64,000 nt of DNA from assembly GCF_050320075.1 (NCBI RefSeq), contig NZ_CP190018.1. One strand, 5' to 3'. Below the pieces are notes generated by a model. The model was not told the DNA's origin. It did no database searches and saw nothing but the letters and a program-made list of their open reading frames with translations. The position numbers and the translations under genes were made by a program. This document shows, one piece after another, positions 5,810 through 56,491 of this stretch. Origin of the DNA: Escherichia coli. GTDB taxonomy: Bacteria; Pseudomonadota; Gammaproteobacteria; Enterobacterales; Enterobacteriaceae. The first letter of the stretch is position 1. Every line of letters begins with the position of its first letter.

Positions 5810-6955
5810 ATGACAAATAATGAATGCAAAGGGCCGTTTGAAGGCTTATTAGTTATCGATATGACACATGTCCTTAATGGACCTTTCGGAACTCAACTTC
5901 TTTGTAATATGGGCGCAAGGGTAATTAAAGTTGAGCCGCCGGGTCATGGTGATGATACCCGCACATTTGGTCCCTATGTGGATGGACAGTCACTCTATTA
6001 CAGTTTTATTAATCATGGCAAAGAGAGTGTGGTTCTTGATTTAAAGAATGATCACGATAAAAGTATATTTATAAATATGCTTAAACAAGCTGATGTATTA
6101 GCTGAGAATTTTCGCCCAGGTACAATGGAAAAACTGGGGTTTTCATGGGAAACGCTACAAGAAATCAACCCGCGTCTCATATATGCTTCATCGTCAGGTT
6201 TTGGGCATACCGGCCCGCTAAAAGATGCTCCAGCCTACGATACCATCATTCAGGCAATGAGCGGGATAATGATGGAAACAGGGTACCCTGATGCTCCGCC
6301 AGTGCGCGTGGGTACCTCTCTTGCGGATTTATGTGGCGGTGTCTATTTATTCAGCGGAATAGTGAGTGCACTTTATGGCCGCGAAAAGAGCCAGAGAGGG
6401 GCGCATGTCGATATAGCGATGTTTGATGCCACGCTGAGTTTTCTGGAGCATGGTCTGATGGCATATATTGCGACAGGGAAGTCACCACAACGCCTGGGAA
6501 ATCGCCATCCCTACATGGCACCTTTTGATGTTTTTGATACTCAGGATAAGCCGATTACGATTTGTTGTGGTAATGACAAGCTTTTTTCTGCGTTATGCCA
6601 GGCACTGGAGCTTACGGAACTGGTTAATGATCCCCGATTTAGCAGCAATATTTTACGCGTACAAAACCAGGCTATTCTTAAACAATATATTGAGCGAACG
6701 TTAAAAACGCAGGCAGCTGAAGTTTGGTTAGCCAAAATACATGAAGTTGGTGTGCCCGTCGCGCCGTTATTAAGTGTGGCTGAGGCCATTAATTTGCCAC
6801 AAACTCAGGCGAGAAATATGTTGATTGAAGCCGGGGGAATAATGATGCCAGGTAATCCGATAAAAATCAGCGGCTGCGCGGACCCGCATGTTATGCCGGG
6901 AGCGGCAACGCTCGACCAACATGGGGAACAAATTCGCCAGGAGTTTTCATCATAA
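5810..6955 (+). CDS. yfdE: family III CoA-transferase YfdE (acetyl-CoA:oxalate CoA-transferase)
   Basis: Track ORF 5771..6955; start moved to the in-frame ATG at 5810 (381 aa) because the upstream part lies inside the hairpin/T-run; paralogous to Frc. Confidence 0.85.
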   Translation: MTNNECKGPFEGLLVIDMTHVLNGPFGTQLLCNMGARVIKVEPPGHGDDTRTFGPYVDGQSLYYSFINHGKESVVLDLKNDHDKSIFINMLKQADVLAENFRPGTMEKLGFSWETLQEINPRLIYASSSGFGHTGPLKDAPAYDTIIQAMSGIMMETGYPDAPPVRVGTSLADLCGGVYLFSGIVSALYGREKSQRGAHVDIAMFDATLSFLEHGLMAYIATGKSPQRLGNRHPYMAPFDVFDTQDKPITICCGNDKLFSALCQALELTELVNDPRFSSNILRVQNQAILKQYIERTLKTQAAEVWLAKIHEVGVPVAPLLSVAEAINLPQTQARNMLIEAGGIMMPGNPIKISGCADPHVMPGAATLDQHGEQIRQEFSS

Positions 6956-11638: not shown

Positions 11639-12802
11639 GTGGAACAGATTAATTCAAATAAAAAACATTCTAACAGAAGAAAATACTTTTCTTTATTGGC
11701 GGTAGTTTTATTTATTGCGTTTTCAGGTGCCTATGCCTATTGGTCAATGGAATTAGAAGACATGATTAGTACAGATGATGCCTATGTCACGGGGAATGCA
11801 GATCCAATTTCTGCACAAGTTTCAGGCAGCGTCACTGTCGTTAATCATAAAGATACGAACTACGTTCGACAGGGTGACATTTTAGTCTCACTGGATAAGA
11901 CTGATGCCACTATCGCACTCAATAAAGCTAAAAATAATCTGGCAAATATTGTTCGGCAAACGAATAAACTGTACTTACAGGATAAACAATACAGTGCCGA
12001 AGTCGCTTCAGCACGTATTCAGTATCAACAATCTTTAGAAGATTATAACCGTCGTGTACCTTTAGCGAAGCAGGGGGTTATTTCAAAAGAAACGCTGGAG
12101 CATACCAAAGATACGTTAATAAGTAGCAAAGCGGCATTGAATGCTGCTATTCAGGCTTATAAAGCGAATAAAGCTTTAGTAATGAACACACCATTAAACC
12201 GTCAGCCACAAGTCGTTGAAGCTGCGGATGCAACCAAAGAAGCCTGGTTGGCGCTTAAACGTACGGATATTAAGAGTCCGGTTACCGGCTACATTGCCCA
12301 GCGAAGTGTTCAGGTCGGCGAAACAGTGAGTCCCGGACAATCGTTAATGGCTGTCGTACCGGCACGTCAAATGTGGGTTAATGCTAACTTTAAAGAAACA
12401 CAACTCACGGATGTACGGATTGGTCAATCGGTCAATATTATCAGCGATCTTTATGGTGAAAATGTTGTGTTTCATGGTCGGGTGACAGGGATCAATATGG
12501 GAACCGGCAATGCGTTCTCCTTATTACCTGCACAAAATGCGACAGGGAACTGGATCAAAATCGTTCAGCGTGTACCGGTTGAAGTTTCTCTTGATCCAAA
12601 AGAACTCATGGAACATCCCTTACGTATTGGTTTATCGATGACAGCAACTATTGATACGAAGAACGAAGACATTGCCGAGATGCCTGAGCTGGCTTCAACC
12701 GTGACGTCCATGCCTGCTTATACCAGTAAGGCTTTAGTTATCGATACCAGTCCGATAGAAAAAGAAATTAGCAACATTATTTCGCATAATGGACAACTTT
12801 AA
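11639..12802 (+). CDS. emrK: multidrug efflux periplasmic adaptor EmrK (EmrA paralog)
   Basis: Track ORF 387 aa, membrane-fusion protein family; stop overlaps emrY start (TAATG). Confidence 0.9.
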   Translation: MEQINSNKKHSNRRKYFSLLAVVLFIAFSGAYAYWSMELEDMISTDDAYVTGNADPISAQVSGSVTVVNHKDTNYVRQGDILVSLDKTDATIALNKAKNNLANIVRQTNKLYLQDKQYSAEVASARIQYQQSLEDYNRRVPLAKQGVISKETLEHTKDTLISSKAALNAAIQAYKANKALVMNTPLNRQPQVVEAADATKEAWLALKRTDIKSPVTGYIAQRSVQVGETVSPGQSLMAVVPARQMWVNANFKETQLTDVRIGQSVNIISDLYGENVVFHGRVTGINMGTGNAFSLLPAQNATGNWIKIVQRVPVEVSLDPKELMEHPLRIGLSMTATIDTKNEDIAEMPELASTVTSMPAYTSKALVIDTSPIEKEISNIISHNGQL

Positions 12803-15776: not shown

Positions 15777-15793
15777 AGTACGTCTCTTTGCGC

Positions 15794-16012
15794 TTAGATG
15801 ATAAATGACAGCAGGAATGTGCCCGCCAGAGCGACGACTGAAGCGATAAATGTCGCTGTCGTATAGTATTTAAATGTTTCATTGAGCGTAGCGCCGCAAT
15901 ATTGCTTCGCCAGCCAGAAAAGCGAGTCCGTAACGATCGTGCAGCCAATCGCACCTGAACCGATAGCAATCGCAATAATTTCCGGGCTGATGTCGGGATA
16001 CAGCGGCAGCAC
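15794..16012 (-). pseudogene. dsdX: 3' remnant of dsdX (GntP-family D-serine permease), truncated by csc cluster
   Basis: About 72 codons encoding a GntP-family C-terminus directly upstream of dsdA; similarity ends at about 16012 where csc sequence begins; in-frame stop just upstream. Confidence 0.7.
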
Positions 16013-16254
16013 AATGATCCATATTTATATTTTCTTCTCCAGATTGGCGATGCCAGTTGGCATGTTTTACCTACTTGCCTACATGGTTACTCGTTGGCGA
16101 GAACAGAGGCGGAATTGGGTACAATTGTCCGGGAATTATTGTTATTTTTTATTGTATTGCCGTGTCGGGTGATAGGGCGTCGAGAATATCGTTGGATCTC
16201 GCCAGTGACGTCTGTTTCTGCTACAGTGCCCGTTTTACGGCAAACGGCTTGGGT

Positions 16255-17250
16255 ATGGCTTCATTAAAGGATGTCGCACGCCTGGCGGGAGTGTCGATGA
16301 TGACAGTCTCCCGGGTGATGCATAATGCAGAATCTGTGCGTCCTGCAACGCGTGATCGCGTATTGCAGGCAATCCAGACCCTGAATTATGTTCCTGATCT
16401 TTCCGCCCGTAAGATGCGCGCTCAAGGACGTAAGCCGTCGACTCTCGCCGTGCTGGCGCAGGACACTGCTACCACTCCTTTCTCTGTTGATATTCTGCTT
16501 GCCATTGAGCAAACCGCCAGCGAGTTCGGCTGGAATAGTTTTTTAATCAATATTTTTTCTGAAGATGACGCTGCCCGCGCGGCACGTCAGCTGCTTGCCC
16601 ACCGTCCGGATGGCATTATCTATACTACAATGGGGCTGCGACATATCACGCTGCCTGAGTCTCTGTATGGTGAAAATATTGTATTGGCGAACTGTGTGGC
16701 GGATGACCCAGCGTTACCCAGTTATATCCCTGATGATTACACTGCACAATATGAATCAACACAGCATTTGCTCGCGGCGGGCTATCGTCAACCGTTATGC
16801 TTCTGGCTACCGGAAAGTGCGTTGGCAACAGGGTATCGTCGGCAGGGATTTGAGCAGGCCTGGCGTGATGCTGGACGAGATCTGGCTGAGGTGAAACAAT
16901 TTCACATGGCAACAGGTGATGATCACTACACCGATCTCGCAAGTTTACTCAATGACCACTTCAAATCGGGCAAACCAGATTTTGATGTTCTGATATGTGG
17001 TAACGATCGCGCAGCCTTTGTGGCTTATCAGGTTCTTTTGGCGAAGGGGGTACGTATCCCGAAGGATGTCGCCGTAATGGGCTTTGATAATCTGGTTGGC
17101 GTCGGGCATCTGTTTTTACCGCCGCTGACCACAATTCAGCTTCCACATGACATTATCGGGCGGGAAGCTGCATTGCATATTATTGAAGGTCGTGAAGGGG
17201 GAAGAGTGACGCGGATCCCTTGCCCGCTGTTGATCCGTTGTTCCACCTGA
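16255..17250 (+). CDS. cscR: LacI-family sucrose operon repressor CscR
   Basis: Track ORF 16057..17250; start moved to in-frame ATG at 16255 (331 aa) where the LacI-type HTH begins (MASLKDVARLAGVSMMTVSRV). Confidence 0.9.
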   Translation: MASLKDVARLAGVSMMTVSRVMHNAESVRPATRDRVLQAIQTLNYVPDLSARKMRAQGRKPSTLAVLAQDTATTPFSVDILLAIEQTASEFGWNSFLINIFSEDDAARAARQLLAHRPDGIIYTTMGLRHITLPESLYGENIVLANCVADDPALPSYIPDDYTAQYESTQHLLAAGYRQPLCFWLPESALATGYRRQGFEQAWRDAGRDLAEVKQFHMATGDDHYTDLASLLNDHFKSGKPDFDVLICGNDRAAFVAYQVLLAKGVRIPKDVAVMGFDNLVGVGHLFLPPLTTIQLPHDIIGREAALHIIEGREGGRVTRIPCPLLIRCST

Positions 17251-17257
17251 TATTATG

Positions 17258-18691
17258 TTAACCCAGTTGCCAGAGTGCTCCATGTTGCAGCACAGCCACT
17301 CCGTGGGAGGCATAGAGCGACAGTTCCCGTTCTTCTGGCTGCGGATATATTCGGCTACTCATCACCGCCTCCCCGTCGTTAATAAATACTTCCACGGATG
17401 ATGTATCGATAAATATCCTTAGGGCGAGCATGTCACCCTGCGGGAGGGGAATACTACGGTAGCCATCTAAATTCTCGTGTGGGTAATACCGCCACAAAAC
17501 AAGTCGCTCAGATTGGTTATCAATATACAGCCGCATTCCAGTGCCGAGCTGTAATCCGTAATGTTCGGCATCACTGTTCTTCAGCGCCCACTGCAACTGA
17601 ATCTCAACTGCTTGCGCGTTTTCCTGCAAAACATATTTATTGCTGATTGTGCGGGGAGAGATAGATTGATGCTGCTGGCGTAACGACTCAGCTTCGTGTA
17701 CCGGGCGTTGTAGAAGTTTGCCATTGCTCTCTGATAGCTCGCGCGCCAGCGTCATGCAGCCTGCCCAGCCTTCACGTTTTGAGGGCATTGGCGATTCCCA
17801 CATATCCATCCAGCCGATAACAATACGCCGACCATCCTTCGCTACAAAGCTTTGTGGTGCATAAAAGTCATGCCCGTTATCAAGTTCAGTAAAATGCCCG
17901 GATTGTGCAAAAAGTCGTCCTGGCGACCACATTCCGGGTATTACGCCACTTTGAAAGCGATTTCGATAACTGTATCCCTCGGCATTCATTCCCTGCGGGG
18001 AAAACATCAGATAATGCTGATCGCCAAGGCTGAAAAAGTCCGGACATTCCCACATATAGCTTTCACCCGCATCAGCGTGGGCCAGTACGCGATCGAAGGT
18101 CCATTCACGCAATGAACTGCCGCGATAAAGCAGGATCTGCCCCGTGTTGCCTGGATCTTTCGCCCCGACAACCATCCACCATGTGTCGGCTTCACGCCAC
18201 ACTTTAGGATCGCGGAAGTGCATGATGCCTTCTGGTGGAGTGAGGATCACACCCTGTTTCTCGAAATGAATACCATCCCGACTGGTAGCCAGACATTGTA
18301 CTTCGCGAATTGCATCGTCATTACCTGCACCATCGAGCCAGACGTGTCCGGTGTAGATAAGTGAGAGGACACCATTGTCATCGACAGCACTACCTGAAAA
18401 ACACCCGTCTTTGTCATTCTCGTCTCCTGGCGCTAGCGCAATAGGCTCATGCTGCCAGTGGATCATATCGTCGCTGGTGGCATGTCCCCAGTGCATTGGC
18501 CCCCAGTGTTCGCTCATCGGGTGATGTTGATAAAACGCGTGATAACGATCGTTAAACCAGATCAGGCCGTTTGGATCGTTCATCCACCCGGCAGGAGGCG
18601 CGAGGTGAAAATGGGGATAGAAAGTGTTACCTCGGCGCTCGTGAAGTTTTGCTAGTGCGTTTTGCGCCGCATGTAATCGAGATTGCGTCAT
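17258..18691 (-). CDS. cscA: sucrose-6-phosphate hydrolase / invertase CscA (GH32)
   Basis: Track ORF 17258..18700; start at the in-frame ATG giving 477 aa; GH32 motifs WMNDPNG and EC present. Confidence 0.9.
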   Translation of the reverse strand: MTQSRLHAAQNALAKLHERRGNTFYPHFHLAPPAGWMNDPNGLIWFNDRYHAFYQHHPMSEHWGPMHWGHATSDDMIHWQHEPIALAPGDENDKDGCFSGSAVDDNGVLSLIYTGHVWLDGAGNDDAIREVQCLATSRDGIHFEKQGVILTPPEGIMHFRDPKVWREADTWWMVVGAKDPGNTGQILLYRGSSLREWTFDRVLAHADAGESYMWECPDFFSLGDQHYLMFSPQGMNAEGYSYRNRFQSGVIPGMWSPGRLFAQSGHFTELDNGHDFYAPQSFVAKDGRRIVIGWMDMWESPMPSKREGWAGCMTLARELSESNGKLLQRPVHEAESLRQQHQSISPRTISNKYVLQENAQAVEIQLQWALKNSDAEHYGLQLGTGMRLYIDNQSERLVLWRYYPHENLDGYRSIPLPQGDMLALRIFIDTSSVEVFINDGEAVMSSRIYPQPEERELSLYASHGVAVLQHGALWQLG

Positions 18692-18725
18692 TTTTATCAT
18701 CCTGGTTAAGCAAATTTGGTGAATT

Positions 18726-18737
18726 GTTAACGTTAAC
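18726..18737. promoter_or_regulatory. candidate CscR operator O1
   Basis: Perfect 12-bp palindrome GTTAACGTTAAC in the cscA/cscK divergent promoter region. Confidence 0.5.
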
Positions 18738-18789
18738 TTTTATAAAAATAAAGTCCCTTACTTTCATAAATGCGATGAATATCACAAAT

Positions 18790-18801
18790 GTTAACGTTAA
18801 C
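18790..18801. promoter_or_regulatory. candidate CscR operator O2
   Basis: Second identical copy of GTTAACGTTAAC (both preceded by TG), 64 bp from the first. Confidence 0.5.
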
Positions 18802-18906
18802 TATGACGTTTTGTGATCGAATATGCATGTTTTAGTAAATCCATGACGATTTTGCGAAAAAGAGGTTTATCACTATGCGTAAGTCAGATGAATTTAAGGG
18901 AAAAAA

Positions 18907-19830
18907 ATGTCAGCCAAAGTATGGGTTTTAGGGGATGCGGTCGTAGATCTCTTGCCAGAATCAGACGGGCGGCTACTGCCTTGTCCTGGCGGCGCGCCAG
19001 CTAACGTTGCGGTGGGAATCGCCAGATTAGGCGGAACAAGTGGGTTTATAGGTCGGGTCGGTGATGATCCTTTTGGTGCGTTAATGCAAAGAACGCTGCT
19101 AACTGAGGGTGTCGATATCACGTATCTGAAGCAAGATGAATGGCACCGGACATCCACGGTGCTTGTCGATCTGAACGATCAAGGAGAACGTTCATTTACG
19201 TTTATGGTCCGCCCCAGTGCCGATCTTTTTTTAGAGACGACAGACTTGCCCTGCTGGCGACATGCCGAATGGTTACATCTCTGTTCAATTGCGTTGTCTG
19301 CCGAGCCTTCGCGTACCAGCGCATTTACTGCGATGACGGCGATCCGGCATGCCGGAGGTTTTGTCAGCTTCGATCCCAATATTCGTGAAGATCTATGGCA
19401 AGACGAGCATTTGCTCCGCTTGTGTTTGCGGCAGGCGCTACAACTGGCGGATGTCGTCAAGCTCTCGGAAGAAGAATGGCGACTTATCAGTGGAAAAACA
19501 CAGAACGATCGGGATATATGCGCCCTGGCAAAAGAGTATGAGATCGCCATGCTGTTGGTGACTAAAGGTGCAGAAGGGGTGGTGGTCTGTTATCGAGGAC
19601 AAGTTCACCATTTTGCTGGAATGTCTGTGAATTGTGTCGATAGCACTGGGGCGGGAGATGCGTTCGTTGCCGGGTTACTCACAGGTCTGTCCTCTACGGG
19701 GTTATCTACAGATGAGAGAGAAATGCGACGAATTATCGATCTCGCTCAACGTTGCGGAGCGCTTGCAGTAACAGCGAAAGGGGCAATGACAGCGCTGCCA
19801 TGTCGACAAGAACTGGAAAGTGAGAAGTAA
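18907..19830 (+). CDS. cscK: fructokinase CscK (PfkB family)
   Basis: Track ORF 307 aa, ribokinase/pfkB fold with GAGD motif. Confidence 0.9.
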   Translation: MSAKVWVLGDAVVDLLPESDGRLLPCPGGAPANVAVGIARLGGTSGFIGRVGDDPFGALMQRTLLTEGVDITYLKQDEWHRTSTVLVDLNDQGERSFTFMVRPSADLFLETTDLPCWRHAEWLHLCSIALSAEPSRTSAFTAMTAIRHAGGFVSFDPNIREDLWQDEHLLRLCLRQALQLADVVKLSEEEWRLISGKTQNDRDICALAKEYEIAMLLVTKGAEGVVVCYRGQVHHFAGMSVNCVDSTGAGDAFVAGLLTGLSSTGLSTDEREMRRIIDLAQRCGALAVTAKGAMTALPCRQELESEK

Positions 19831-19891
19831 ACGGCGAGGCCGCTCTTATCTCTAAATAGGACATGAATTTTTTAACGACAGGCAGGTAATT

Positions 19892-39789: not shown

Positions 39790-40722
39790 GTGGATAAAAT
39801 TTTCGTTGATGAAGCAGTAAATGAGCTGCAAACCATTCAGGACATGTTGCGCTGGTCGGTGAGCCGCTTCAGCGCGGCAAATATCTGGTACGGTCACGGC
39901 ACTGACAACCCGTGGGATGAAGCCGTACAGCTGGTGTTGCCTTCGCTCTACCTGCCGCTGGATATCCCGGAAGATATGCGCACCGCGCGTCTGACCTCCA
40001 GCGAAAAACACCGTATTGTTGAACGCGTGATCCGCCGCGTCAACGAGCGCATTCCGGTGGCTTACCTGACCAACAAAGCCTGGTTCTGCGGTCATGAATT
40101 TTACGTCGATGAACGCGTGCTGGTGCCGCGCTCGCCGATTGGTGAACTGATCAACAATAAATTTGCCGGACTTATCAGCAAGCAACCGCAGCATATTTTA
40201 GATATGTGTACCGGTAGCGGCTGCATCGCCATTGCCTGTGCTTATGCCTTCCCGGATGCGGAAGTTGACGCGGTGGATATCTCTCCCGACGCGCTGGCGG
40301 TTGCTGAACAGAACATCGAAGAACACGGTCTGATCCACAACGTCATTCCGATTCGCTCCGATCTGTTCCGCGACTTGCCGAAAGTGCAGTACGACCTGAT
40401 TGTCACTAACCCGCCGTATGTCGATGCGGAAGATATGTCCGACCTGCCAAATGAGTACCGTCACGAGCCGGAACTGGGCCTGGCATCTGGCACTGACGGC
40501 CTGAAACTGACGCGTCGCATTCTCGGTAACGCGGCAGATTATCTTGCTGATGATGGCGTACTGATTTGTGAAGTCGGCAACAGCATGGTACATCTTATGG
40601 AACAATATCCGGATGTTCCGTTCACCTGGCTGGAGTTTGATAACGGCGGCGATGGTGTGTTTATGCTCACCAAAGAGCAGCTGCTGGCGGCCCGTGAACA
40701 TTTCGCGATTTATAAAGATTAA
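39790..40722 (+). CDS. prmB: ribosomal protein L3 glutamine N5-methyltransferase PrmB
   Basis: Track ORF 39457..40722; start placed at in-frame GTG ([15 protein letters not shown], 310 aa); NPPY motif present. Confidence 0.9.
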
Positions 40723-40756
40723 GTAAACACGCAAACACAACAATAACGGAGCCGTG

Positions 40757-41842
40757 ATGGCTGGAAACACAATTGGACAACTCTTTCGCGTAACCACCTT
40801 CGGCGAATCGCACGGGCTGGCGCTCGGCTGCATCGTCGATGGTGTTCCGCCAGGCATTCCGCTGACGGAAGCGGACCTGCAACATGACCTTGATCGTCGT
40901 CGCCCTGGGACATCGCGCTACACCACCCAGCGTCGTGAGCCGGATCAGGTCAAAATTCTCTCCGGTGTTTTTGAAGGCGTTACTACCGGCACCAGCATTG
41001 GCTTGTTGATCGAAAATACCGACCAGCGTTCTCAGGATTACAGCGCCATTAAAGACGTTTTCCGTCCAGGCCATGCCGATTACACCTACGAACAAAAATA
41101 CGGTCTGCGCGATTATCGCGGCGGTGGACGTTCTTCCGCCCGCGAAACCGCCATGCGCGTGGCGGCGGGGGCGATTGCCAAAAAATATCTCGCCGAGAAA
41201 TTTGGCATTGAGATTCGCGGCTGCCTGACCCAGATGGGCGACATTCCGCTGGAAATCAAAGACTGGTCGCAGGTCGAGCAAAATCCATTCTTCTGCCCGG
41301 ATCCGGACAAAATTGACGCGTTAGATGAACTGATGCGCGCGCTGAAAAAAGAGGGTGACTCTATTGGCGCGAAAGTCACCGTCGTTGCCAGTGGCGTACC
41401 CGCCGGACTTGGCGAGCCGGTCTTTGACCGCCTGGATGCCGACATCGCCCATGCGCTGATGAGCATCAACGCGGTGAAAGGCGTGGAAATTGGCGACGGT
41501 TTTGACGTGGTGGCGCTGCGTGGCAGCCAGAACCGCGACGAAATCACCAAAGACGGTTTCCAGAGCAACCATGCGGGCGGCATTCTTGGCGGTATCAGCA
41601 GCGGGCAGCAAATCATTGCCCATATGGCGCTGAAGCCGACCTCCAGCATTACCGTGCCAGGGCGCACCATTAACCGCTTTGGCGAAGAAGTTGAGATGAT
41701 CACCAAAGGCCGTCACGATCCTTGTGTCGGGATCCGTGCGGTGCCGATCGCAGAAGCGATGCTGGCGATCGTTTTGATGGATCACCTGTTACGGCAACGG
41801 GCGCAAAATGTCGATGTGAAGACTGATATTCCACGCTGGTAA
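40757..41842 (+). CDS. aroC: chorismate synthase
   Basis: Track ORF, start at second Met ([10 protein letters not shown], 361 aa). Confidence 0.95.
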
Positions 41843-41845
41843 AAA

Positions 41846-42670
41846 ATGAACAAAACCGCGATTGCGCTGCTGGCCCTGCTTGCCAGTAGCGCCAGCCTGG
41901 CAGCGACGCCGTGGCAAAAAATAACCCAACCTGTGCCGGGTAGCGCACAATCGATAGGCAGTTTTTCTAATGGTTGTATCGTCGGCGCTGACACGCTGCC
42001 GATACAGTCCGAACATTATCAGGTCATGCGTACCGATCAGCGTCGCTATTTCGGACATCCGGATCTGGTGATGTTTATCCAGCGTCTGAGTAGCCAGGTG
42101 AGCAATCTGGGCTTGGGCACGGTGCTGATTGGCGATATGGGGATGCCTGCTGGTGGTCGTTTCAACGGCGGTCACGCCAGCCACCAGACCGGACTGGATG
42201 TGGACATCTTCCTGCAACTGCCAAAAACACGCTGGACCTCCGCGCAGCTCTTGCGCCCGCAAGCGTTAGATTTAGTTTCCCGCGACGGTAAACACGTTGT
42301 TCCGACGCTGTGGAAGCCAGAAATTTTCAGCTTGATCAAACTCGCCGCCCAGGACAAAGACGTCACGCGCATTTTTGTTAATCCGGCGATTAAACAACAA
42401 CTTTGCCTTGATGCGGGCACCGATCGCGACTGGTTGCGCAAAGTGCGACCCTGGTTCCAGCATCGCGCGCATATGCATGTACGATTACGTTGTCCTGCCG
42501 ATAGTCTGGAGTGTGAAGATCAACCTTTACCGCCACCAGGCGATGGTTGCGGGGCAGAACTGCAAAGCTGGTTTGAACCTCCAAAACCGGGAACAACAAA
42601 GCCTGAGAAGAAGACACCGCCTCCGTTGCCGCCTTCCTGCCAGGCGCTACTGGATGAGCACGTGATCTAA
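41846..42670 (+). CDS. mepA: penicillin-insensitive murein DD-endopeptidase MepA
   Basis: Track ORF 274 aa with signal peptide. Confidence 0.9.
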
Positions 42671-43479
42671 TGGAAACGTTTAATAGCCTGTTTATGGTTT
42701 CCCCGCTGTTGCTGGGAGTTCTCTTTTTTGTCGCCATGCTGGCGGGATTTATCGACTCGATTGCCGGTGGCGGTGGGTTACTCACCATTCCGGCATTGAT
42801 GGCGGCGGGGATGTCTCCCGCTAACGCGCTGGCAACCAATAAACTGCAAGCCTGCGGTGGCTCTATTTCCGCCACTATCTACTTTATTCGCCGCAAAGTG
42901 GTTAGTTTAAGCGATCAGAAACTCAATATCGCCATGACCTTTGTCGGCTCAATGAGCGGCGCATTGCTGGTGCAGTATGTTCAGGCTGATGTCTTACGGC
43001 AGATTTTGCCCATTCTGGTGATTTGTATCGGCCTCTATTTCTTGCTGATGCCAAAGCTGGGTGAAGAAGATCGCCAGCGTCGGATGTACGGTTTACCCTT
43101 CGCGTTAATTGCCGGTGGCTGCGTCGGTTTTTATGACGGCTTCTTTGGTCCGGCAGCGGGATCGTTTTACGCGCTGGCCTTTGTTACGCTGTGCGGATTC
43201 AACCTCGCCAAAGCCACGGCTCACGCCAAATTACTCAACGCAACGTCAAATATCGGCGGTTTACTGCTGTTTATTCTCGGTGGCAAAGTGATTTGGGCGA
43301 CAGGATTCGTGATGCTGGTGGGGCAGTTCCTCGGCGCGCGCATGGGTTCACGACTGGTGTTGAGCAAAGGACAAAAGCTGATCCGCCCGATGATCGTTAT
43401 CGTCTCGGCGGTGATGAGTGCCAAATTACTTTACGATAGCCACGGACAGGAGATCCTCCACTGGTTGGGGATGAACTAA
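42670..43479 (+). CDS. yfcA: TauE/SafE-family membrane protein YfcA
   Basis: Track ORF 269 aa, polytopic membrane protein. Confidence 0.85.
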   Translation: METFNSLFMVSPLLLGVLFFVAMLAGFIDSIAGGGGLLTIPALMAAGMSPANALATNKLQACGGSISATIYFIRRKVVSLSDQKLNIAMTFVGSMSGALLVQYVQADVLRQILPILVICIGLYFLLMPKLGEEDRQRRMYGLPFALIAGGCVGFYDGFFGPAAGSFYALAFVTLCGFNLAKATAHAKLLNATSNIGGLLLFILGGKVIWATGFVMLVGQFLGARMGSRLVLSKGQKLIRPMIVIVSAVMSAKLLYDSHGQEILHWLGMN

Positions 43480-44027
43480 TGAACAGTACACACCACTATG
43501 AGCAGTTGATTGAAATTTTTAATAGCTGCTTTGCCGATGATTTTAATACCCGTCTGATTAAAGGCGACGACGAACCGATCTATCTTCCTGCTGATGCGGA
43601 AGTACCGTATAACCGAATCGTCTTTGCTCATGGCTTTTATGCCAGCGCAATTCATGAGATTTCGCACTGGTGTATTGCCGGGAAAGCGCGCCGTGAGCTG
43701 GTTGATTTCGGCTACTGGTATTGTCCCGACGGACGCGATGCCCAAACGCAAAGCCAGTTTGAAGATGTTGAAGTGAAGCCGCAGGCGCTGGACTGGTTGT
43801 TCTGTGTGGCGGCGGGATATCCGTTTAATGTCAGTTGCGACAATCTGGAAGGGGATTTCGAACCGGACCGCGTGGTATTTCAACGGCGGGTACATGCACA
43901 GGTGATGGATTATCTGGAAAACGGCATTCCTGAACGCCCGGCACGCTTCATTAAAGCATTACAAAATTATTATCACACGCCGGAACTTACGGCGGAACAG
44001 TTCCCGTGGCCGGAAGCGCTCAACTGA
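43479..44027 (+). CDS. epmC: elongation factor P hydroxylase EpmC (YfcM)
   Basis: Track ORF 182 aa recognised as YfcM/EpmC. Confidence 0.85.
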   Translation: MNSTHHYEQLIEIFNSCFADDFNTRLIKGDDEPIYLPADAEVPYNRIVFAHGFYASAIHEISHWCIAGKARRELVDFGYWYCPDGRDAQTQSQFEDVEVKPQALDWLFCVAAGYPFNVSCDNLEGDFEPDRVVFQRRVHAQVMDYLENGIPERPARFIKALQNYYHTPELTAEQFPWPEALN

Positions 44028-44060
44028 AGCCTGCGCCACGTTTTACAATGAGGAAAGAAG

Positions 44061-44339
44061 ATGATCGCGGAGTTTGAATCACGCATTCTGGCATTAATCG
44101 ACGGTATGGTTGACCATGCCAGTGATGATGAGTTGTTTGCCAGTGGGTATTTGCGTGGCCACCTGACATTAGCCATCGCAGAACTGGAAAGTGGTGATGA
44201 CCACTCCGCCCAGGCGGTACATACAACCGTTAGCCAGAGTCTGGAAAAAGCCATTGGTGCCGGTGAATTGTCGCCGCGTGACCAGGCACTGGTGACCGAT
44301 ATGTGGGAAAACCTGTTTCAGCAGGCGTCACAGCAGTAA
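44061..44339 (+). CDS. yfcL: small uncharacterised protein YfcL
   Basis: Track ORF 92 aa; position between epmC and mnmC. Confidence 0.8.
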
Positions 44340-44345
44340 GTAATG

Positions 44346-44377
44346 TGCCGGATAAGGCGTTCACGCCGCATCCGGCA
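44346..44377. repeat. REP element
   Basis: TGCCGGATAAGGCGTTCACGCCGCATCCGGCA between convergent yfcL and mnmC. Confidence 0.55.
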
Positions 44378-44394
44378 AACACTGCCAAAGTAGA

Positions 44395-46467
<2,073 letters not shown>

Positions 46468-46476
46468 CTATTAATC

Positions 46477-46511
46477 GTCTGATCGGACTTGTTCGGCGTA
46501 CAAGTGTACGC
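46477..46511. promoter_or_regulatory. fabB promoter FadR site and adjacent FabR palindrome
   Basis: GTCTGATCGGACTTGTTC (FadR-like) followed by GCGTACA-AG-TGTACGC, a 7-2-7 palindrome typical of the FabR operator. Confidence 0.55.
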
Positions 46512-46559
46512 TATTGTGCCATTCGAAACTTACTATAGTGCGACTTACAGAGGTATTGA

Positions 46560-47780
46560 ATGAAACGTGCAGTGATTACTGGCCTGGGCATCGTTTCCAG
46601 CATCGGTAATAACCAGCAGGAAGTCCTGGCATCTCTGCGTGAAGGACGCTCAGGGATCACTTTCTCTCAAGAGCTGAAGGACTCCGGCATGCGTAGCCAC
46701 GTATGGGGCAACGTAAAACTGGATACCACTGGCCTCATTGACCGCAAAGTTGTGCGCTTTATGAGCGACGCATCCATCTATGCATTCCTTTCCATGGAGC
46801 AGGCAATCGCAGATGCTGGCCTCTCCCCGCAAGCTTATCAGAACAACCCACGTGTGGGCCTGATTGCAGGTTCCGGTGGTGGTTCCCCGCGTTTCCAGGT
46901 GTTCGGCGCTGACGCAATGCGCGGCCCGCGCGGCCTGAAAGCGGTTGGCCCGTATGTGGTCACTAAAGCGATGGCATCTGGCGTTTCTGCCTGTCTCGCC
47001 ACGCCGTTTAAAATTCATGGCGTTAACTACTCCATCAGCTCCGCGTGTGCGACTTCCGCACACTGTATCGGTAACGCAGTAGAGCAGATCCAACTGGGCA
47101 AACAGGACATCGTGTTTGCTGGTGGCGGCGAAGAGCTGTGCTGGGAAATGGCTTGCGAATTCGACGCGATGGGTGCGCTGTCTACCAAATACAACGACAC
47201 CCCGGAAAAAGCCTCCCGTACTTACGACGCTCACCGTGACGGTTTCGTTATCGCAGGCGGCGGCGGTATGGTAGTGGTTGAAGAGCTGGAACACGCGCTG
47301 GCGCGTGGTGCTCACATCTATGCTGAAATCGTTGGCTACGGCGCAACGTCTGATGGCGCAGACATGGTTGCTCCGTCTGGCGAAGGCGCAGTGCGTTGCA
47401 TGAAGATGGCGATGCACGGTGTTGATACCCCAATCGACTACCTGAACTCCCACGGTACTTCGACTCCGGTTGGCGACGTGAAAGAGCTGGCGGCTATCCG
47501 TGAAGTGTTCGGCGATAAGAGCCCGGCGATTTCTGCAACCAAAGCAATGACCGGTCACTCTCTGGGCGCTGCTGGCGTACAGGAAGCTATCTACTCTCTG
47601 CTGATGCTGGAACACGGCTTTATCGCCCCGAGCATCAACATTGAAGAGCTGGACGAACAGGCTGCGGGTCTGAACATCGTGACCGAAACGACCGATCGCG
47701 AACTGACCACCGTTATGTCTAACAGCTTCGGCTTCGGCGGCACCAACGCCACGCTGGTAATGCGCAAGCTGAAAGATTAA
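46560..47780 (+). CDS. fabB: 3-oxoacyl-ACP synthase I (KAS I)
   Basis: Track ORF 406 aa; condensing-enzyme fold with active-site Cys (SSACATS). Confidence 0.95.
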
Positions 47781-47789
47781 TTTGGAGTA

Positions 47790-47822
47790 GGTCGGATAAG
47801 ACGCGTCAGCGTCGCATCCGAC
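47790..47822. repeat. REP element after fabB
   Basis: GGTCGGATAAGACGCGTCAGCGTCGCATCCGAC. Confidence 0.55.
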
Positions 47823-47856
47823 ATTACGCGCCAATGCGGCCTCCGGCACTAACGCC

Positions 47857-47882
47857 AAAGGGAACCCGATGGTTCCCTTTTT
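47857..47882 (+). terminator. intrinsic terminator after fabB
   Basis: AAAGGGAACC-CGAT-GGTTCCCTTT followed by TT. Confidence 0.65.
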
Positions 47883-48041
47883 CACATCATTGACAATCGC
47901 CGCCTGTTCCAGGCAAACTTCCCGCTTTGTCGATTTCCTTCTGAAAAGACGTGCGCGTTAAATCCTGCCAACGCACCGTAACCCTGAAACCAGAGAGATG
48001 AGACGGGGAAATTCCTCGCCTTGCGCTGCATTCTGGAGTAA

Positions 48042-50215
<2,174 letters not shown>

Positions 50216-50313
50216 TACGTATCCTTATACCTGAAATCTTCGCAAGTATGCCTGGCCGCGAGATTATGGCACACTTGTCCGGTTAACTCTCGTCTCATAC
50301 AGGTAACACAAAC

Positions 50314-51450
50314 GTGAAAATCCTTGTTGATGAAAATATGCCTTATGCCCGCGACTTATTTAGCCGTTTGGGCGAGGTGACCGCGATTCCCGGGCGTCCA
50401 ATCCCCGTGGCTCAACTGGCAGACGCGGATGCGCTGATGGTGCGTTCGGTCACGAAAGTGAATGAATCTTTGCTGGCAGGAAAACCCATTAAATTTGTTG
50501 GCACTGCCACCGCGGGGACCGACCATGTCGATGAAGCGTGGTTAAAGCAGGCGGGAATTGGTTTTTCCGCGGCACCAGGCTGTAATGCGATTGCGGTGGT
50601 GGAATATGTTTTCTCCTCACTGCTGATGCTTGCCGAACGCGATGGATTTTCACTGCACGACCGTACAGTGGGGATCGTGGGCGTTGGTAACGTTGGTCGC
50701 CGTTTACAGGCGCGACTGGAAGCGTTAGGGATTACAACCTTGCTTTGCGATCCGCCTCGCGCCGACCGTGGGGATGAGGGGGATTTCCGCTCGCTGGATG
50801 AATTAGTTCAGCATGCGGATATTCTGACTTTCCATACGCCACTCTTTAAAGATGGTCCGTACAAAACGCTGCATCTGGCGGATGAAAAACTGATCCGTAG
50901 CCTGAAACCAGGAGCGATTCTGATTAACGCCTGCCGTGGCGCAGTCGTCGATAATACTGCCCTATTGACCTGTCTGAACGAAGGCCAGAAGTTAAGCGTA
51001 GTGCTGGATGTCTGGGAAGGCGAACCGGAACTCAACGTGGAATTGCTGAAAAAAGTGGATATCGGCACGCCGCATATCGCAGGCTATACCCTGGAAGGTA
51101 AAGCACGCGGTACTACGCAAGTGTTTGAAGCCTATAGCAAGTTTATTGGGCATGAACAGCATGTTGCGCTGGATACGTTGCTGCCCGCGCCAGAGTTTGG
51201 CCGCATTACGCTGCATGGTCCGCTCGATCAACCGACGCTGAAAAGGCTGGTGCATTTGGTGTATGATGTGCGCCGCGATGACGCACCGCTGCGTAAAGTC
51301 GCCGGAATACCGGGTGAGTTCGATAAGCTGCGCAAAAACTATCTTGAGCGCCGTGAATGGTCATCTCTGTATGTGATTTGTGATGACGCCAGCGCGGCAT
51401 CATTGCTGTGTAAACTGGGTTTTAACGCCGTTCATCATCCGGCACGTTAA
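50314..51450 (+). CDS. pdxB: erythronate-4-phosphate dehydrogenase
   Basis: Track ORF 378 aa, D-2-hydroxyacid dehydrogenase family ([12 protein letters not shown]). Confidence 0.9.
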
Positions 51451-51515
51451 TCTCTTCTTCATGCTCTCTGCTGTAATATTGGCAGGGAGCTTTGCTATTT
51501 CTGGAGTAAACCACC

Positions 51516-52529
51516 ATGTCTGAAGGCTGGAACATTGCCGTCCTGGGCGCAACTGGCGCTGTGGGCGAAGCCCTGCTTGAAACGCTGGCTGAACGTCAGT
51601 TCCCGGTTGGGGAAATTTATGCACTGGCACGTAACGAAAGCGCAGGCGAACAACTGCGCTTTGGTGGTAAGACAATCACCGTGCAGGATGCCGCTGAATT
51701 CGACTGGACGCAGGCGCAGCTGGCGTTTTTTGTCGCAGGCAAAGAAGCTACCGCTGCCTGGGTTGAAGAAGCGACCAACTCAGGTTGCCTGGTGATCGAT
51801 AGCAGCGGATTGTTTGCTCTCGAACCTGACGTACCGCTGGTGGTGCCGGAAGTAAACCCGTTTGTACTGACCGATTACCGCAACCGGAATGTCATCGCCG
51901 TACCGGACAGTCTGACCAGCCAACTGCTGGCGGCACTGAAACCGTTAATCGATCAGGGCGGTTTGTCGCGTATCAGCGTTACCAGCCTGATTTCAGCCTC
52001 CGCCCAGGGCAAAAAAGCGGTCGATGCGTTAGCGGGGCAGAGTGCGAAATTGCTCAACGGCATTCCGATTGATGAAGAAGATTTCTTCGGGCGTCAGCTG
52101 GCGTTCAACATGCTGCCGTTACTGCCGGATAGCGAAGGTAGCGTGCGTGAAGAACGTCGTATCGTTGACGAAGTACGAAAAATCCTGCAGGACGAAGGGC
52201 TGATGATTTCGGCAAGCGTCGTCCAGGCACCGGTATTCTACGGTCATGCCCAGATGGTCAACTTTGAAGCACTGCGTCCGCTGGCAGCAGAAGAAGCGCG
52301 TGATGCGTTTGCTCAGGGCGAAGATATTGTGCTCTCTGAAGAGAACGAATTCCCGACTCAGGTGGGGGATGCTTCTGGTACGCCGCATCTTTCCGTTGGC
52401 TGCGTACGTAATGACTACGGTATGCCGGAGCAAGTTCAGTTCTGGTCGGTGGCCGATAACGTTCGCTTTGGCGGCGCGCTGATGGCAGTAAAAATCGCCG
52501 AGAAACTGGTGCAGGAGTATCTGTACTAA
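51516..52529 (+). CDS. usg: USG-1 protein (aspartate-semialdehyde dehydrogenase homolog)
   Basis: Track ORF 337 aa with N-terminal Rossmann motif GATGAVG. Confidence 0.85.
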
Positions 52530-53341
52530 TGTCCGACCAGCAACAACCGCCAGTTTATAAAATTGCGCTGGGCATTGAGTACGACGGCAGTAAGTATTAC
52601 GGCTGGCAACGGCAGAACGAAGTCCGCAGTGTGCAGGAGAAGCTGGAAAAGGCGCTCTCCCAGGTGGCGAACGAACCCATCACCGTCTTCTGCGCCGGGC
52701 GTACTGACGCAGGTGTACACGGCACCGGGCAGGTTGTGCATTTCGAAACGACCGCGCAGCGCAAAGACGCTGCGTGGACGTTGGGCGTAAATGCGAATTT
52801 ACCTGGTGACATCGCCGTGCGTTGGGTTAAAGCTGTACCTGATGATTTTCATGCCCGATTTAGCGCCACGGCTCGCCGTTATCGCTACATCATCTACAAT
52901 CATCGGCTGCGCCCGGCGGTACTGAGTAAAGGGGTAACCCATTTTTACGAACCGCTGGACGCTGAACGGATGCATCGGGCCGCGCAATGCTTGCTGGGCG
53001 AGAATGATTTCACCTCGTTCCGTGCGGTGCAGTGCCAGTCCCGAACCCCGTGGCGCAACGTTATGCATATTAATGTCACGCGTCACGGTCCTTATGTGGT
53101 GGTAGATATCAAAGCGAATGCCTTTGTACATCATATGGTCAGGAATATTGTCGGCAGCCTGATGGAAGTCGGTGCCCACAACCAGCCGGAGAGCTGGATA
53201 GCAGAGTTGCTGGCGGCAAAGGACAGAACGCTGGCGGCAGCAACGGCAAAAGCGGAAGGGCTGTATCTGGTCGCGGTGGATTACCCTGACCGGTATGATC
53301 TTCCAAAACCGCCAATGGGCCCGCTATTTCTGGCGGACTAA
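52529..53341 (+). CDS. truA: tRNA pseudouridine(38-40) synthase
   Basis: Track ORF 270 aa; start overlaps usg stop. Confidence 0.95.
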
Positions 53342-53423
53342 CAAGAATAATGCTCGGAACATTTCAGGCTGTAGCCAACGTAGTTACAGCCTGTAAGATG
53401 ACGAGTACAAGGCATAGGCTAAT

Positions 53424-54083
53424 ATGGACCTGATTTATTTCCTCATCGATTTTATCCTGCACATTGACGTGCATCTGGCAGAACTGGTCGCGGAGTATGG
53501 CGTCTGGGTTTATGCCATTTTGTTCTTAATTTTGTTCTGTGAAACCGGTCTGGTGGTAACGCCGTTTTTACCGGGTGATTCATTGCTGTTTGTTGCCGGT
53601 GCGTTGGCATCACTGGAAACCAACGATCTCAACGTCCATATGATGGTGGTGCTGATGCTGATCGCCGCGATTGTGGGTGACGCGGTGAACTACACCATTG
53701 GACGGTTATTTGGTGACAAACTGTTCAGTAATCCGGATTCGAAAATCTTTCGTCGCAGTTATCTTGATAAGACTCATCAGTTTTACGAGAAACATGGCGG
53801 CAAAACGATTATTCTCGCCCGTTTTGTGCCGATCGTCAGAACGTTCGCGCCGTTCGTTGCGGGAATGGGCCACATGTCGTATCGTCATTTCGCCGCTTTT
53901 AACGTCATCGGCGCGTTGCTATGGGTACTGATTTTTACCTACGCGGGTTATTTCTTCGGAACGCTCCCCTTCATTCAGAGCAACCTTAAACTGATGATTG
54001 TTGGCATTATTTTTGTTTCAATATTGCCAGGTGTTTTCGAATTTATTCGCCACAAACGCGCTGCGGCACGCGCCGCAAAATAA
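53424..54083 (+). CDS. dedA: DedA-family inner membrane protein
   Basis: Track ORF 219 aa. Confidence 0.85.
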
Positions 54084-54238
54084 AAAGTAACTCCGCGGTT
54101 CGACCACTTTTTTATCCAAAGTTTCGGGCTGTTATGTTTTAATGTGCAACATTCATGGTCTGTTGGGGGCAAAAATGGCATTATGCGTCCCCAAAGATAA
54201 AACTGGCATCGAACCAGGTTCAGACAGAAAGGTCCCTA

Positions 54239-55153
54239 ATGAGCTGGATTGAACGAATTAAAAGCAACATTACTCCCACCCGCAAGGCGAGCATTCCTGA
54301 AGGGGTGTGGACTAAGTGTGATAGCTGCGGTCAGGTTTTATACCGCGCTGAGCTGGAACGTAATCTTGAGGTCTGTCCGAAGTGTGACCATCACATGCGT
54401 ATGACAGCGCGTAATCGCCTGCATAGCCTGTTAGATGAAGGAAGCCTTGTGGAGCTGGGTAGCGAGCTTGAGCCGAAAGATGTGCTGAAGTTTCGTGACT
54501 CCAAGAAGTATAAAGAGCGTCTGGCATCTGCGCAGAAAGAAACCGGCGAAAAAGATGCGCTGGTGGTGATGAAAGGCACCCTGTATGGAATGCCAGTTGT
54601 CGCTGCGGCATTCGAGTTCGCCTTTATGGGCGGTTCCATGGGGTCTGTGGTAGGTGCACGTTTCGTGCGTGCCGTTGAGCAGGCGCTGGAAGATAACTGC
54701 CCACTGATCTGCTTCTCCGCCTCTGGTGGCGCACGTATGCAGGAAGCACTGATGTCGCTGATGCAGATGGCGAAAACCTCTGCGGCGCTGGCAAAAATGC
54801 AGGAGCGCGGCTTGCCGTACATCTCCGTGCTGACCGACCCGACCATGGGTGGTGTTTCTGCAAGTTTCGCCATGCTGGGCGATCTCAACATCGCTGAACC
54901 GAAAGCGTTAATCGGCTTTGCCGGTCCGCGTGTTATCGAACAGACCGTTCGCGAAAAACTGCCGCCAGGATTCCAGCGCAGTGAATTCCTGATCGAGAAG
55001 GGCGCGATCGACATGATCGTCCGTCGTCCGGAAATGCGCCTGAAACTGGCGAGTATTCTGGCGAAGTTGATGAATCTGCCAGCGCCGAATCCTGAAGCGC
55101 CGCGTGAAGGCGTAGTGGTGCCACCGGTACCAGATCAGGAACCTGAGGCCTGA
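54239..55153 (+). CDS. accD: acetyl-CoA carboxylase carboxyltransferase beta subunit
   Basis: Track ORF 54155..55153; start at in-frame ATG ([10 protein letters not shown], 304 aa); Zn-ribbon CDSCG...CPKCDHH. Confidence 0.95.
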
Positions 55154-55222
55154 TAACTGATAAGGGCAGGGCCACTGGCTCTGCCCTTTTGCTATTCTCA
55201 CCGTAACGAATCAGCGGATACC

Positions 55223-56491
55223 ATGATTATCAAACGCACTCCTCAAGCCGCGTCGCCTCTGGCTTCGTGGCTTTCTTATCTGGAAAACCTGCACAGTAAA
55301 ACTATCGATCTCGGCCTTGAGCGCGTGAGCCAGGTCGCGGCGCGTCTTGGCGTTCTGAAACCAGCGCCATTTGTGTTTACCGTTGCGGGTACGAATGGCA
55401 AAGGCACCACCTGCCGTACGCTGGAGTCGATTCTGATGGCGGCAGGGTACAAAGTGGGCGTCTACAGTTCACCGCATCTGGTGCGTTATACCGAGCGCGT
55501 ACGTGTGCAGGGTCAGGAATTGCCGGAATCGGCCCACACCGCCTCTTTTGCGGAGATTGAATCGGCACGCGGTGATATTTCCCTGACCTATTTCGAGTAC
55601 GGTACGCTGTCGGCGTTGTGGCTGTTCAAGCAGGCACAACTTGACGTGGTGATTCTGGAAGTAGGGCTGGGTGGTCGTCTGGACGCAACCAATATTGTCG
55701 ATGCCGATGTCGCGGTTGTAACCAGCATTGCGCTGGATCATACCGACTGGCTGGGGCCAGATCGCGAAAGCATTGGTCGCGAGAAAGCAGGCATCTTCCG
55801 CAGCGAAAAACCGGCAATTGTCGGTGAGCCGGAAATGCCTTCTACCATTGCTGATGTGGCGCAGGAAAAAAGTGCACTGTTACAACGTCGGGGCGTTGAG
55901 TGGAACTATTCCGTCACCGATCATGACTGGACGTTTAGCGATGCTCACGGCACGCTGGAAAATCTGCCGTTGCCGCTTGTCCCGCAACCGAATGCCGCAA
56001 CGGCGCTGGCGGCACTGCGTGCCAGCGGGCTGGAGGTCAGTGAAAATGCCATTCGCGACGGGATTGCCAGCGCAATTTTGCCGGGACGTTTCCAGATTGT
56101 GAGCGAGTCGCCACGTGTTATTTTTGATGTCGCGCATAATCCACATGCGGCGGAATATCTCACCGGGCGTATGAAAGCGCTACCGAAAAACGGGCGCGTG
56201 CTGGCGGTTATCGGTATGCTACATGATAAAGATATTGCCGGAACTCTGGCCTGGTTGAAAAGCGTGGTTGATGACTGGTATTGTGCGCCACTGGAAGGGC
56301 CGCGCGGTGCCACGGCAGAACAACTGCTTGAGCATTTGGGTAACGGCAAATCATTTGATAGCGTGGCGCAGGCATGGGATGCCGCAATGGCGGACGCTAA
56401 AGCGGAAGATACCGTGCTGGTGTGTGGTTCGTTCCACACGGTCGCACATGTCATGGAAGTGATTGACGCGAGGAGAAGCGGTGGCAAGTAA
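55223..56491 (+). CDS. folC: dihydrofolate synthase / folylpolyglutamate synthase
   Basis: Track ORF 422 aa; P-loop GTNGKGT. Confidence 0.9.
   Translation: MIIKRTPQAASPLASWLSYLENLHSKTIDLGLERVSQVAARLGVLKPAPFVFTVAGTNGKGTTCRTLESILMAAGYKVGVYSSPHLVRYTERVRVQGQELPESAHTASFAEIESARGDISLTYFEYGTLSALWLFKQAQLDVVILEVGLGGRLDATNIVDADVAVVTSIALDHTDWLGPDRESIGREKAGIFRSEKPAIVGEPEMPSTIADVAQEKSALLQRRGVEWNYSVTDHDWTFSDAHGTLENLPLPLVPQPNAATALAALRASGLEVSENAIRDGIASAILPGRFQIVSESPRVIFDVAHNPHAAEYLTGRMKALPKNGRVLAVIGMLHDKDIAGTLAWLKSVVDDWYCAPLEGPRGATAEQLLEHLGNGKSFDSVAQAWDAAMADAKAEDTVLVCGSFHTVAHVMEVIDARRSGGK

Follow-up and report, generated by a model that had tools for sequence, protein, structure and literature searches.

The window analysed here, a stretch of 64,000 nucleotides of the Escherichia coli chromosome (contig NZ_CP190018.1), covers ypdI to the beginning of hisP in the orientation opposite to that of K-12 MG1655, where the corresponding region lies at ~2.42-2.50 Mb. 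An earlier note on this DNA had assigned GTG start codons to three of its housekeeping genes, prmB, mnmC and dedD, in place of the longer frames of an open reading frame (ORF) list. Our analysis indicates that these GTG codons are very probably ordinary bacterial GUG initiation sites, and that the longer ORFs are a product of the rule by which the list was made. The three GTG starts already stand in the curated annotation, are for the most part confirmed by experiment, and occur at the usual genome-wide frequency. What is added to the known picture is a fourth GTG start in the same part of the window, that of pdxB, a fuller list of over-extended ORFs, the reported two-form N-terminus of aroC, and the purely comparative standing of the PrmB start.

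A megablast search with positions 39000-47000 as the query found matches in 5,425 of the 5,426 complete genomes of E. coli. Two strains, YZLc1-3 and Ec-U3, were identical to the window across the query. Annotation by the Prokaryotic Genome Annotation Pipeline (PGAP) was taken from these two strains, whose loci stand at a fixed offset to the window from ~21,700 onward, and curated annotation from K-12 MG1655. The part of the window covered by the earlier note, 39790-56483, is referred to below as the span. The ORF list, purely mechanical by its own description, opens each frame at the first ATG, GTG or TTG after a stop codon. For comparison, species-representative genomes were scanned for FabB, yielding 80 Enterobacterales loci with 10-kb flanks that take in the genes from prmB to dedD wherever their order is conserved. 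E. coli proteins were mapped onto these loci by tblastn, and the codon aligned to residue 1 was taken as the orthologous start codon, with 26 to 77 species per gene. Protein-level evidence came from TRAINSPOTTER, an N-terminomics study of E. coli K-12 searched against UniProt and a six-frame database (PMC13245402), of which the row block b2287-b2342 and yfcZ (b2343) of Table S1 were covered.

PGAP and the curated K-12 annotation both start prmB at the GTG at 39790-39792 (plus strand), mnmC at 46401-46399 (minus strand) and dedD at 56481-56483 (plus strand). The ORF list opens the same genes at ATG 39457, TTG 46461 and TTG 56463, which lie 111, 20 and 6 codons upstream, so that the earlier note was right about both the starts and the excess length. 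All coordinates given there are correct, and the comparison with curated K-12 sequences that it had proposed returned the same positions and codons. In K-12, prmB (b2330), mnmC (b2324), dedD (b2314) and pdxB (b2320) have identical start positions, start codons, upstream contexts and lengths (310, 668, 220 and 378 residues), with strain-level substitutions only, such as Ala here for Ser at MnmC residue 5. The prmB GTG at 39790 corresponds to position 2448440 on the minus strand of K-12. The version numbers of the K-12 protein records (.4,.4 and.2) suggest that curators revised them, probably at the starts. Each of the four GTG-initiated coding sequences (CDS; 39790, 46401 on the minus strand, 56481 and 50314) is open to its known stop and has a single terminal stop.

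Alignment of the residue-1 column across species revealed that start codons exchange with one another and with little else. The aligned codon is GTG, TTG, ATG or other in 36, 18, 4 and 1 of 59 species for prmB, and in 72, 2, 1 and 2 of 77 for mnmC. For dedD the counts are 22 GTG, 1 TTG and 3 ATG in 26 species, and for pdxB 50 GTG, no TTG and 8 ATG in 58. Start codons thus occupy the column in 58/59, 75/77, 26/26 and 58/58 species, and the remaining codons (one for prmB, two for mnmC) belong to divergent sequences in which the extrapolated position is off by one or two codons. Since exchange limited to ATG, GTG and TTG is expected of an initiation codon and not of a sense codon, this pattern argues for initiation at the annotated site.

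The per-position entropy of the alignments is consistent with this placement. In prmB, mnmC, dedD and pdxB, third-position variability sets in directly after the annotated start and is not seen upstream of it. For prmB, the entropies by codon position are 0.15/0.12/0.84 downstream of the GTG versus 1.59/1.65/1.63 upstream, and within the saturated upstream region the GGAGG before the GTG is the sole conserved island. The contrast is less informative for dedD, where the upstream sequence is folC coding sequence in another frame.

The upstream extensions themselves do not behave as parts of these genes. That of prmB consists of 168 nt antisense to smrB and 165 nt of divergent intergenic region, and contains an in-frame stop in 57 of 58 species, among them a second E. 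coli, with the stop 49 codons upstream, and E. albertii, Salmonella and Citrobacter, with the stop at 9 codons. The mnmC extension, which belongs to the mnmC-fabB control region, shows no codon periodicity and is stopped in 23 of 75 species. The dedD extension coincides with the final codons of folC. The folC stop codon occupies 56489-56491, and the dedD start lies 11 nt inside the folC end; the upstream TTG of dedD is confined to 3 of 26 species, and no upstream alternative start of any kind exists in 19 of 26. Shine-Dalgarno motifs at the annotated starts are strong, conserved and spaced by 5 nt in prmB (GGAGG) and dedD (GAGGAG, with GGGGAG or GAGGAG conserved across species), and weak in mnmC (GAG) and pdxB (AGG). 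No good Shine-Dalgarno motif was found at the upstream candidate starts of the ORF list.

N-terminal peptides from K-12 place initiation at the annotated GTG of three of the four genes. In Table S1 of TRAINSPOTTER, dedD is represented by MASKFQNR and ASKFQNR, pdxB by a peptide of residues 1-13, and mnmC by a Met-initiated peptide of residues 1-22. As Met at a GTG codon arises only by initiation, these peptides settle the dedD, pdxB and mnmC starts. The same table lists ribosome-profiling support by Ribo-RET and INRI-seq for dedD and pdxB; it has an empty field for mnmC and no row for prmB. The earlier note had named N-terminal peptides of the longer ORFs as evidence that would speak against it; none occurs in rows b2287-b2342, where the sole upstream site is a one-residue extension of aroC.

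Protein families and structures agree with the same starts. Full-length NCBIfam profiles were matched to the extended ORFs, and no profile covered any extension. In dedD, accD, cscR and yfdE the match begins precisely at the annotated start, in yfcZ at most one residue away from it, and in prmB and mnmC 12 and 6 residues, respectively, into the annotated protein. The MnmC constructs in PDB entries 3AWI, 3PS9 and 2QY6 begin at the GTG-encoded residue. Entry 3AWI was considered as a crystallised long form, its 688 residues equalling the extended mnmC ORF, and was rejected on alignment, in which a 20-residue tag with PRGSH at its end precedes the 668 residues from MKHYSIQ. PrmB had no close PDB match at a cut-off of E <= 1e-30.

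Several observations weigh against the assignment of the GTG codons as the sole starts, or against the explanations offered alongside it. The NCBIfam profiles and PDB constructs derive from annotated sequences, and provide consistency and no fully independent proof. For the prmB start, no N-terminal peptide or initiation-profiling entry was found in the covered parts of TRAINSPOTTER Table S1 and of the INRI-seq, tetracycline-profiling and Salmonella riboproteogenomics data, and a literature search for a prmB GTG start or yfcB initiation codon returned nothing; the predicted PrmB start is therefore a comparative assignment and the notable gap in protein-level support. The mnmC site, for which a peptide is listed, has no Ribo-RET or INRI-seq entry in its row and carries an elongation-based REPARATION call only. 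The TTG 20 codons before the mnmC GTG is conserved in 45 of 75 species, and minor initiation may occur there. This TTG is most likely the -35 element of mnmC's own promoter, judging from a conservation that falls in blocks and not in codons: among 44 distinct sequences, the upstream region reads AAATTTGC, a variable 17 nt, TAAGAT, GAG and GTG. As a -35 element, the TTG would probably lie outside the mnmC mRNA. The hexamers of this candidate promoter agree with the consensus at no more than 3/6 and 4/6 positions, a consensus promoter scan of the mnmC-fabB intergenic region gave no site at threshold, and the Cappable-seq supplements list no transcription-start coordinates in the mnmC range.

These points were weighed in the light of other readings of the same sequences. 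If the longer ORFs were real, 111, 20 and 6 residues would be added to the N-termini of PrmB, MnmC and DedD, and the GTGs would be internal Val codons. The extended frames are open both in the window and in K-12, and the mnmC TTG is conserved as described, yet Met-initiated peptides at the dedD and mnmC GTGs are incompatible with an internal Val, and the interrupted prmB extension, the absence of upstream periodicity and of profiles over the extensions, and the poor Shine-Dalgarno contexts make this reading extremely unlikely. A milder version, in which the GTG or ATG is the main start and the mnmC TTG 46461, the dedD TTG 56463 or the aroC GTG 40754 yields a minor longer proteoform, is improbable to a lesser degree. 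TRAINSPOTTER reported 17 upstream alternative sites genome-wide (PMC13245402), and its aroC row lists a one-residue-longer peptide beside the normal one, at a GTGATG tandem present in 39 of 61 species. Against this, the covered TRAINSPOTTER rows and INRI-seq data list no upstream site for mnmC, dedD, prmB or accD, the dedD TTG is rare among species, and the mnmC TTG fits a promoter -35 element better. The aroC extension has no profiling support in the table, its GTG is 2 nt from GGAG, and similar extensions are given at AAC and ATC.

A start at a downstream ATG, with the GTG region as an untranslated leader, has next to no likelihood. We found no point in its support; residues 2-10 are nearly invariant, coding-type third-position variation begins at the first codon past the GTG, and the first downstream Met lies at least 18 residues into PrmB and beyond the membrane segment of DedD. 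Peptides spanning residues 1-8 of DedD, 1-13 of PdxB and 1-22 of MnmC refute a downstream start for these three. It might also be supposed that GTG starts are concentrated in this region for a shared reason, for example co-regulation through initiation factor 3. Four of the 17 genes in the span (prmB, mnmC, dedD and pdxB) start with GTG, and this 24% compares with 9% near-cognate codons among experimentally detected annotated sites (P=0.06). About 14% of annotated K-12 genes start with GTG genome-wide. Relative to that rate the binomial P is 0.21, non-ATG starts across the window (7/55) are average, and the four genes belong to separate transcription units and are found on both strands. Enrichment in the span was accordingly rejected, and a common cause is very improbable.

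Ordinary GUG initiation at the annotated codons, the reading we prefer, draws on established mechanism: Shine-Dalgarno positioning, wobble of the initiator tRNA and discrimination by initiation factor 3 are well known, and GUG starts occur in roughly one gene in seven, often accompanied by a good Shine-Dalgarno motif or by coupling to the gene before. In the proposed pathway, the 30S subunit would be positioned by the Shine-Dalgarno motif, GGAGG in prmB and GAGGAG in dedD, and initiator fMet-tRNA would read GUG through wobble at the first base, so that formyl-Met and not Val would stand at the N-terminus. Discrimination against non-AUG codons by initiation factor 3 would render GUG somewhat weaker than AUG, a weakness that could be offset by a strong Shine-Dalgarno motif, as in prmB and dedD, or by coupling to the upstream gene, as in dedD and hisM. 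In mnmC and pdxB, GTG combined with a weak Shine-Dalgarno motif would suit low-level expression of an enzyme. The folC-dedD junction, and that of hisQ and hisM, where the hisQ stop TGA and the hisM start share GTGA at 62841-62844, appear to be arranged in a manner typical of translational coupling.

Textbook non-AUG starts include those of lacI (GUG) and infC (AUU). The infC start codon is autoregulatory, whereas for the genes here no such role is shown or suggested. In rpsT (UUG) and cra (GUG), both in TRAINSPOTTER Table S1, the near-cognate codon is read as Met, as it is here. According to Belinky, Rogozin and Koonin (2017), a stronger Shine-Dalgarno motif tends to make up for a switch to sub-optimal GUG or UUG (PMC5622118), a pattern that fits prmB and dedD and differs from mnmC and pdxB, where GTG is accompanied by weak motifs.

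Whether the weak start codons of the four low-abundance housekeeping genes are actively kept, by selection for sub-maximal initiation beyond mere tolerance, was considered separately. Non-ATG codons are found at the prmB start in 54 of 58 species despite the strong and conserved GGAGG, and GTG is retained in mnmC, dedD and pdxB in 86-95% of species. At pooled fourfold degenerate sites of these genes, the base found in E. coli is conserved in 40-71% of species on average; taken singly, 10 of 61 such sites equal or exceed the start codon of their own gene in retention. The long-term GTG retention seen here lies above most fourfold sites but within their range. Because the start codons fall within the range of single fourfold sites, we regard such selection as a possibility of rather low probability and make no claim for it.

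Table 1 Positions of start sites, upstream elements and over-extended frames in the window.
Feature	Position	Strand	Source or remark
prmB CDS, 310 aa	39790..40722	+	PGAP and K-12, start GTG 39790-39792
GGAGG Shine-Dalgarno, 5 nt before prmB GTG	39780..39784	+	sequence
Spurious 111-codon prmB extension	39457..39789	+	ORF list
mnmC CDS, 668 aa	44395..46401	-	PGAP and K-12, start GTG 46401-46399
Spurious 20-codon mnmC extension	46402..46461	-	ORF list, opens at TTG 46461
Candidate mnmC promoter, TTGCGC, 17-nt spacer, TAAGAT	46433..46461	-	inferred from conserved hexamers and variable spacer
dedD CDS, 220 aa	56481..57143	+	PGAP and K-12, start GTG 56481-56483
GAGGAG Shine-Dalgarno of dedD, inside folC CDS, 5 nt before GTG	56470..56475	+	sequence
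Spurious 6-codon dedD extension	56463..56480	+	ORF list, opens at TTG 56463
pdxB CDS, fourth GTG start in span	50314..51450	+	PGAP and K-12
emrK CDS, GTG start, outside span	11639..12802	+	PGAP and K-12
hisM CDS, GTG start, outside span	62841..63557	+	annotation and sequence
accD CDS, start ATG	54239..55153	+	ORF list opens at 54155, 28 codons early
aroC tandem GTG-ATG	40754..40759	+	annotated ATG 40757, ORF list GTG 40754
aroC, over-extended 1 codon	40757 (ATG), 40754 (ORF list GTG)	+	annotation
yfcZ CDS, start ATG	27243..27527	+	PGAP and K-12; ORF list GTG 27219
cscR CDS, start ATG	16255..17250	+	PGAP; ORF list TTG 16057
yfdE CDS, start ATG	5810..6955	+	PGAP and K-12; ORF list GTG 5771
cscA, over-extended 3 codons	18691/18700		versus PGAP
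fadL, over-extended 2 codons	26871/26877		versus PGAP and K-12
Fimbrial usher, over-extended 4 codons	33163/33151		versus PGAP
Fimbrial subunit at 36546, over-extended 22 codons	36546/36480		versus PGAP

Across the window, the 55 annotated CDS start with ATG (48), GTG (6) or TTG (1). The ORF list makes 12 of the 55 too long, through an in-frame start codon lying between the annotated start and the first upstream stop, and since the list follows a first-start rule, over-extension of some genes results. Out-of-frame controls had an upstream start-type codon in 23/55 and 25/55 genes versus the 12/55 of the real frame, where such codons are thus rarer (Fisher P=0.006). Over-prediction by taking the longest ORF is a known gene-finding artefact, and what is seen here does not differ from it. 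The items named in the earlier note, including the downstream ATG starts of accD, cscR, yfcZ and yfdE, held up, but its list was incomplete, lacking the GTG starts of pdxB, emrK and hisM and five over-extended ORFs (cscA, fadL, the fimbrial usher and subunit, and aroC). The GTG starts of pdxB, emrK and hisM were probably omitted because the ORF list already opens these genes at the right codon. The significance is practical only: first-start coordinates give wrong N-termini for 12 of 55 genes, for instance prmB (+111 residues), cscR (+66) and accD (+28), which would harm protein alignments, signal-peptide predictions and analyses of upstream regions.

The ATG starts were examined in the same manner. 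For accD, the aligned codon is ATG in 40 of 40 species, the extension contains an in-frame stop in 30 of 40, and PDB chain 2F9Y_B (304 residues) begins at the annotated ATG. For cscR, which is not present in K-12, the match to full-length LacI-family profiles sets in at residue 67 of the extended ORF, corresponding to the annotated ATG, and for yfdE an equivalog profile begins at residue 14, again the annotated ATG. The YfdE chain in PDB entry 4HL6 has 401 residues, 20 beyond the annotated 381, a surplus that, from the lengths alone, fits an expression tag. The yfcZ (b2343) peptide MSKCSADETPV... in Table S1 lies at the annotated ATG, with Ribo-RET and INRI-seq support. In the part of Table S1 covered, no entries were found for prmB, accD, yfdE, emrK or hisM.

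The aroC start is the one site at which two forms are reported. ATG is the aligned codon in all 61 species, with GTG directly upstream in the 39 counted above, and the K-12 gene (b2329) is represented in Table S1 by N-terminal peptides of both the annotated-ATG form and a form longer by one residue. Ribo-RET, performed in strain BL21, and INRI-seq support the annotated ATG. The longer form is reported as a real minor proteoform; as the same table (PMC13245402) gives similar one-residue extensions at non-start codons, the peptide identification needs caution.

Further observations were made beside these genes. The N-terminomics study also reports a second yfcZ start at codon 15 (27285), an ATG 14 codons downstream of the annotated one (MDVGTIMDNSDCTASYSR). 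At the accD start (54213-54260), there is almost no variation across 31-40 Enterobacterales species in ~26 nt before the ATG and in the first 18-21 coding nt, synonymous positions and a CGA Arg codon at codon 6 included; CGA is a rare Arg codon in E. coli. A conserved RNA structure was considered for this region and rejected, as RNAalifold gave only a weak stem, GUUCA/UGAAC, around the Shine-Dalgarno motif and AUG, with essentially no covariation; a comparison of the region with Rfam returned no match. The window's only TTG start, chosen by PGAP, is that of a yfcO-like fimbrial adhesin (38069-38932). Curated K-12 yfcO begins at an ATG 5 codons past the equivalent TTG, and here an ATG (MKKWTL...) likewise lies 5 codons downstream, at 38084, so that the PGAP start may itself be an over-extension.

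Between mnmC and fabB, the sequence CTGATCGGACTTGTTCG at 46479-46495 resembles the FadR operator. On the fabB side, ACAAGTGTACGCT at 46500-46512 matches exactly the core motif published for FabR, ACAnnTGTnnnnT (PMC4804515).

Outside the span, the sucrose genes cscR, cscA, cscK and cscB (15777-21139) occupy the place of K-12 dsdC and dsdX; in the two near-identical strains, only a 219-nt fragment of dsdX is annotated, as a pseudogene adjoining dsdA. At 21140-21730, beside tRNA-Arg (21584-21655), the window lacks an island of ~8.8 kb that is present in YZLc1-3 and Ec-U3 between cscB and the tRNA gene and encodes an integrase, a recombinase, a P-loop ATPase and a rolling-circle replication protein. 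The same tRNA-Arg in K-12 carries the CPS-53 prophage.

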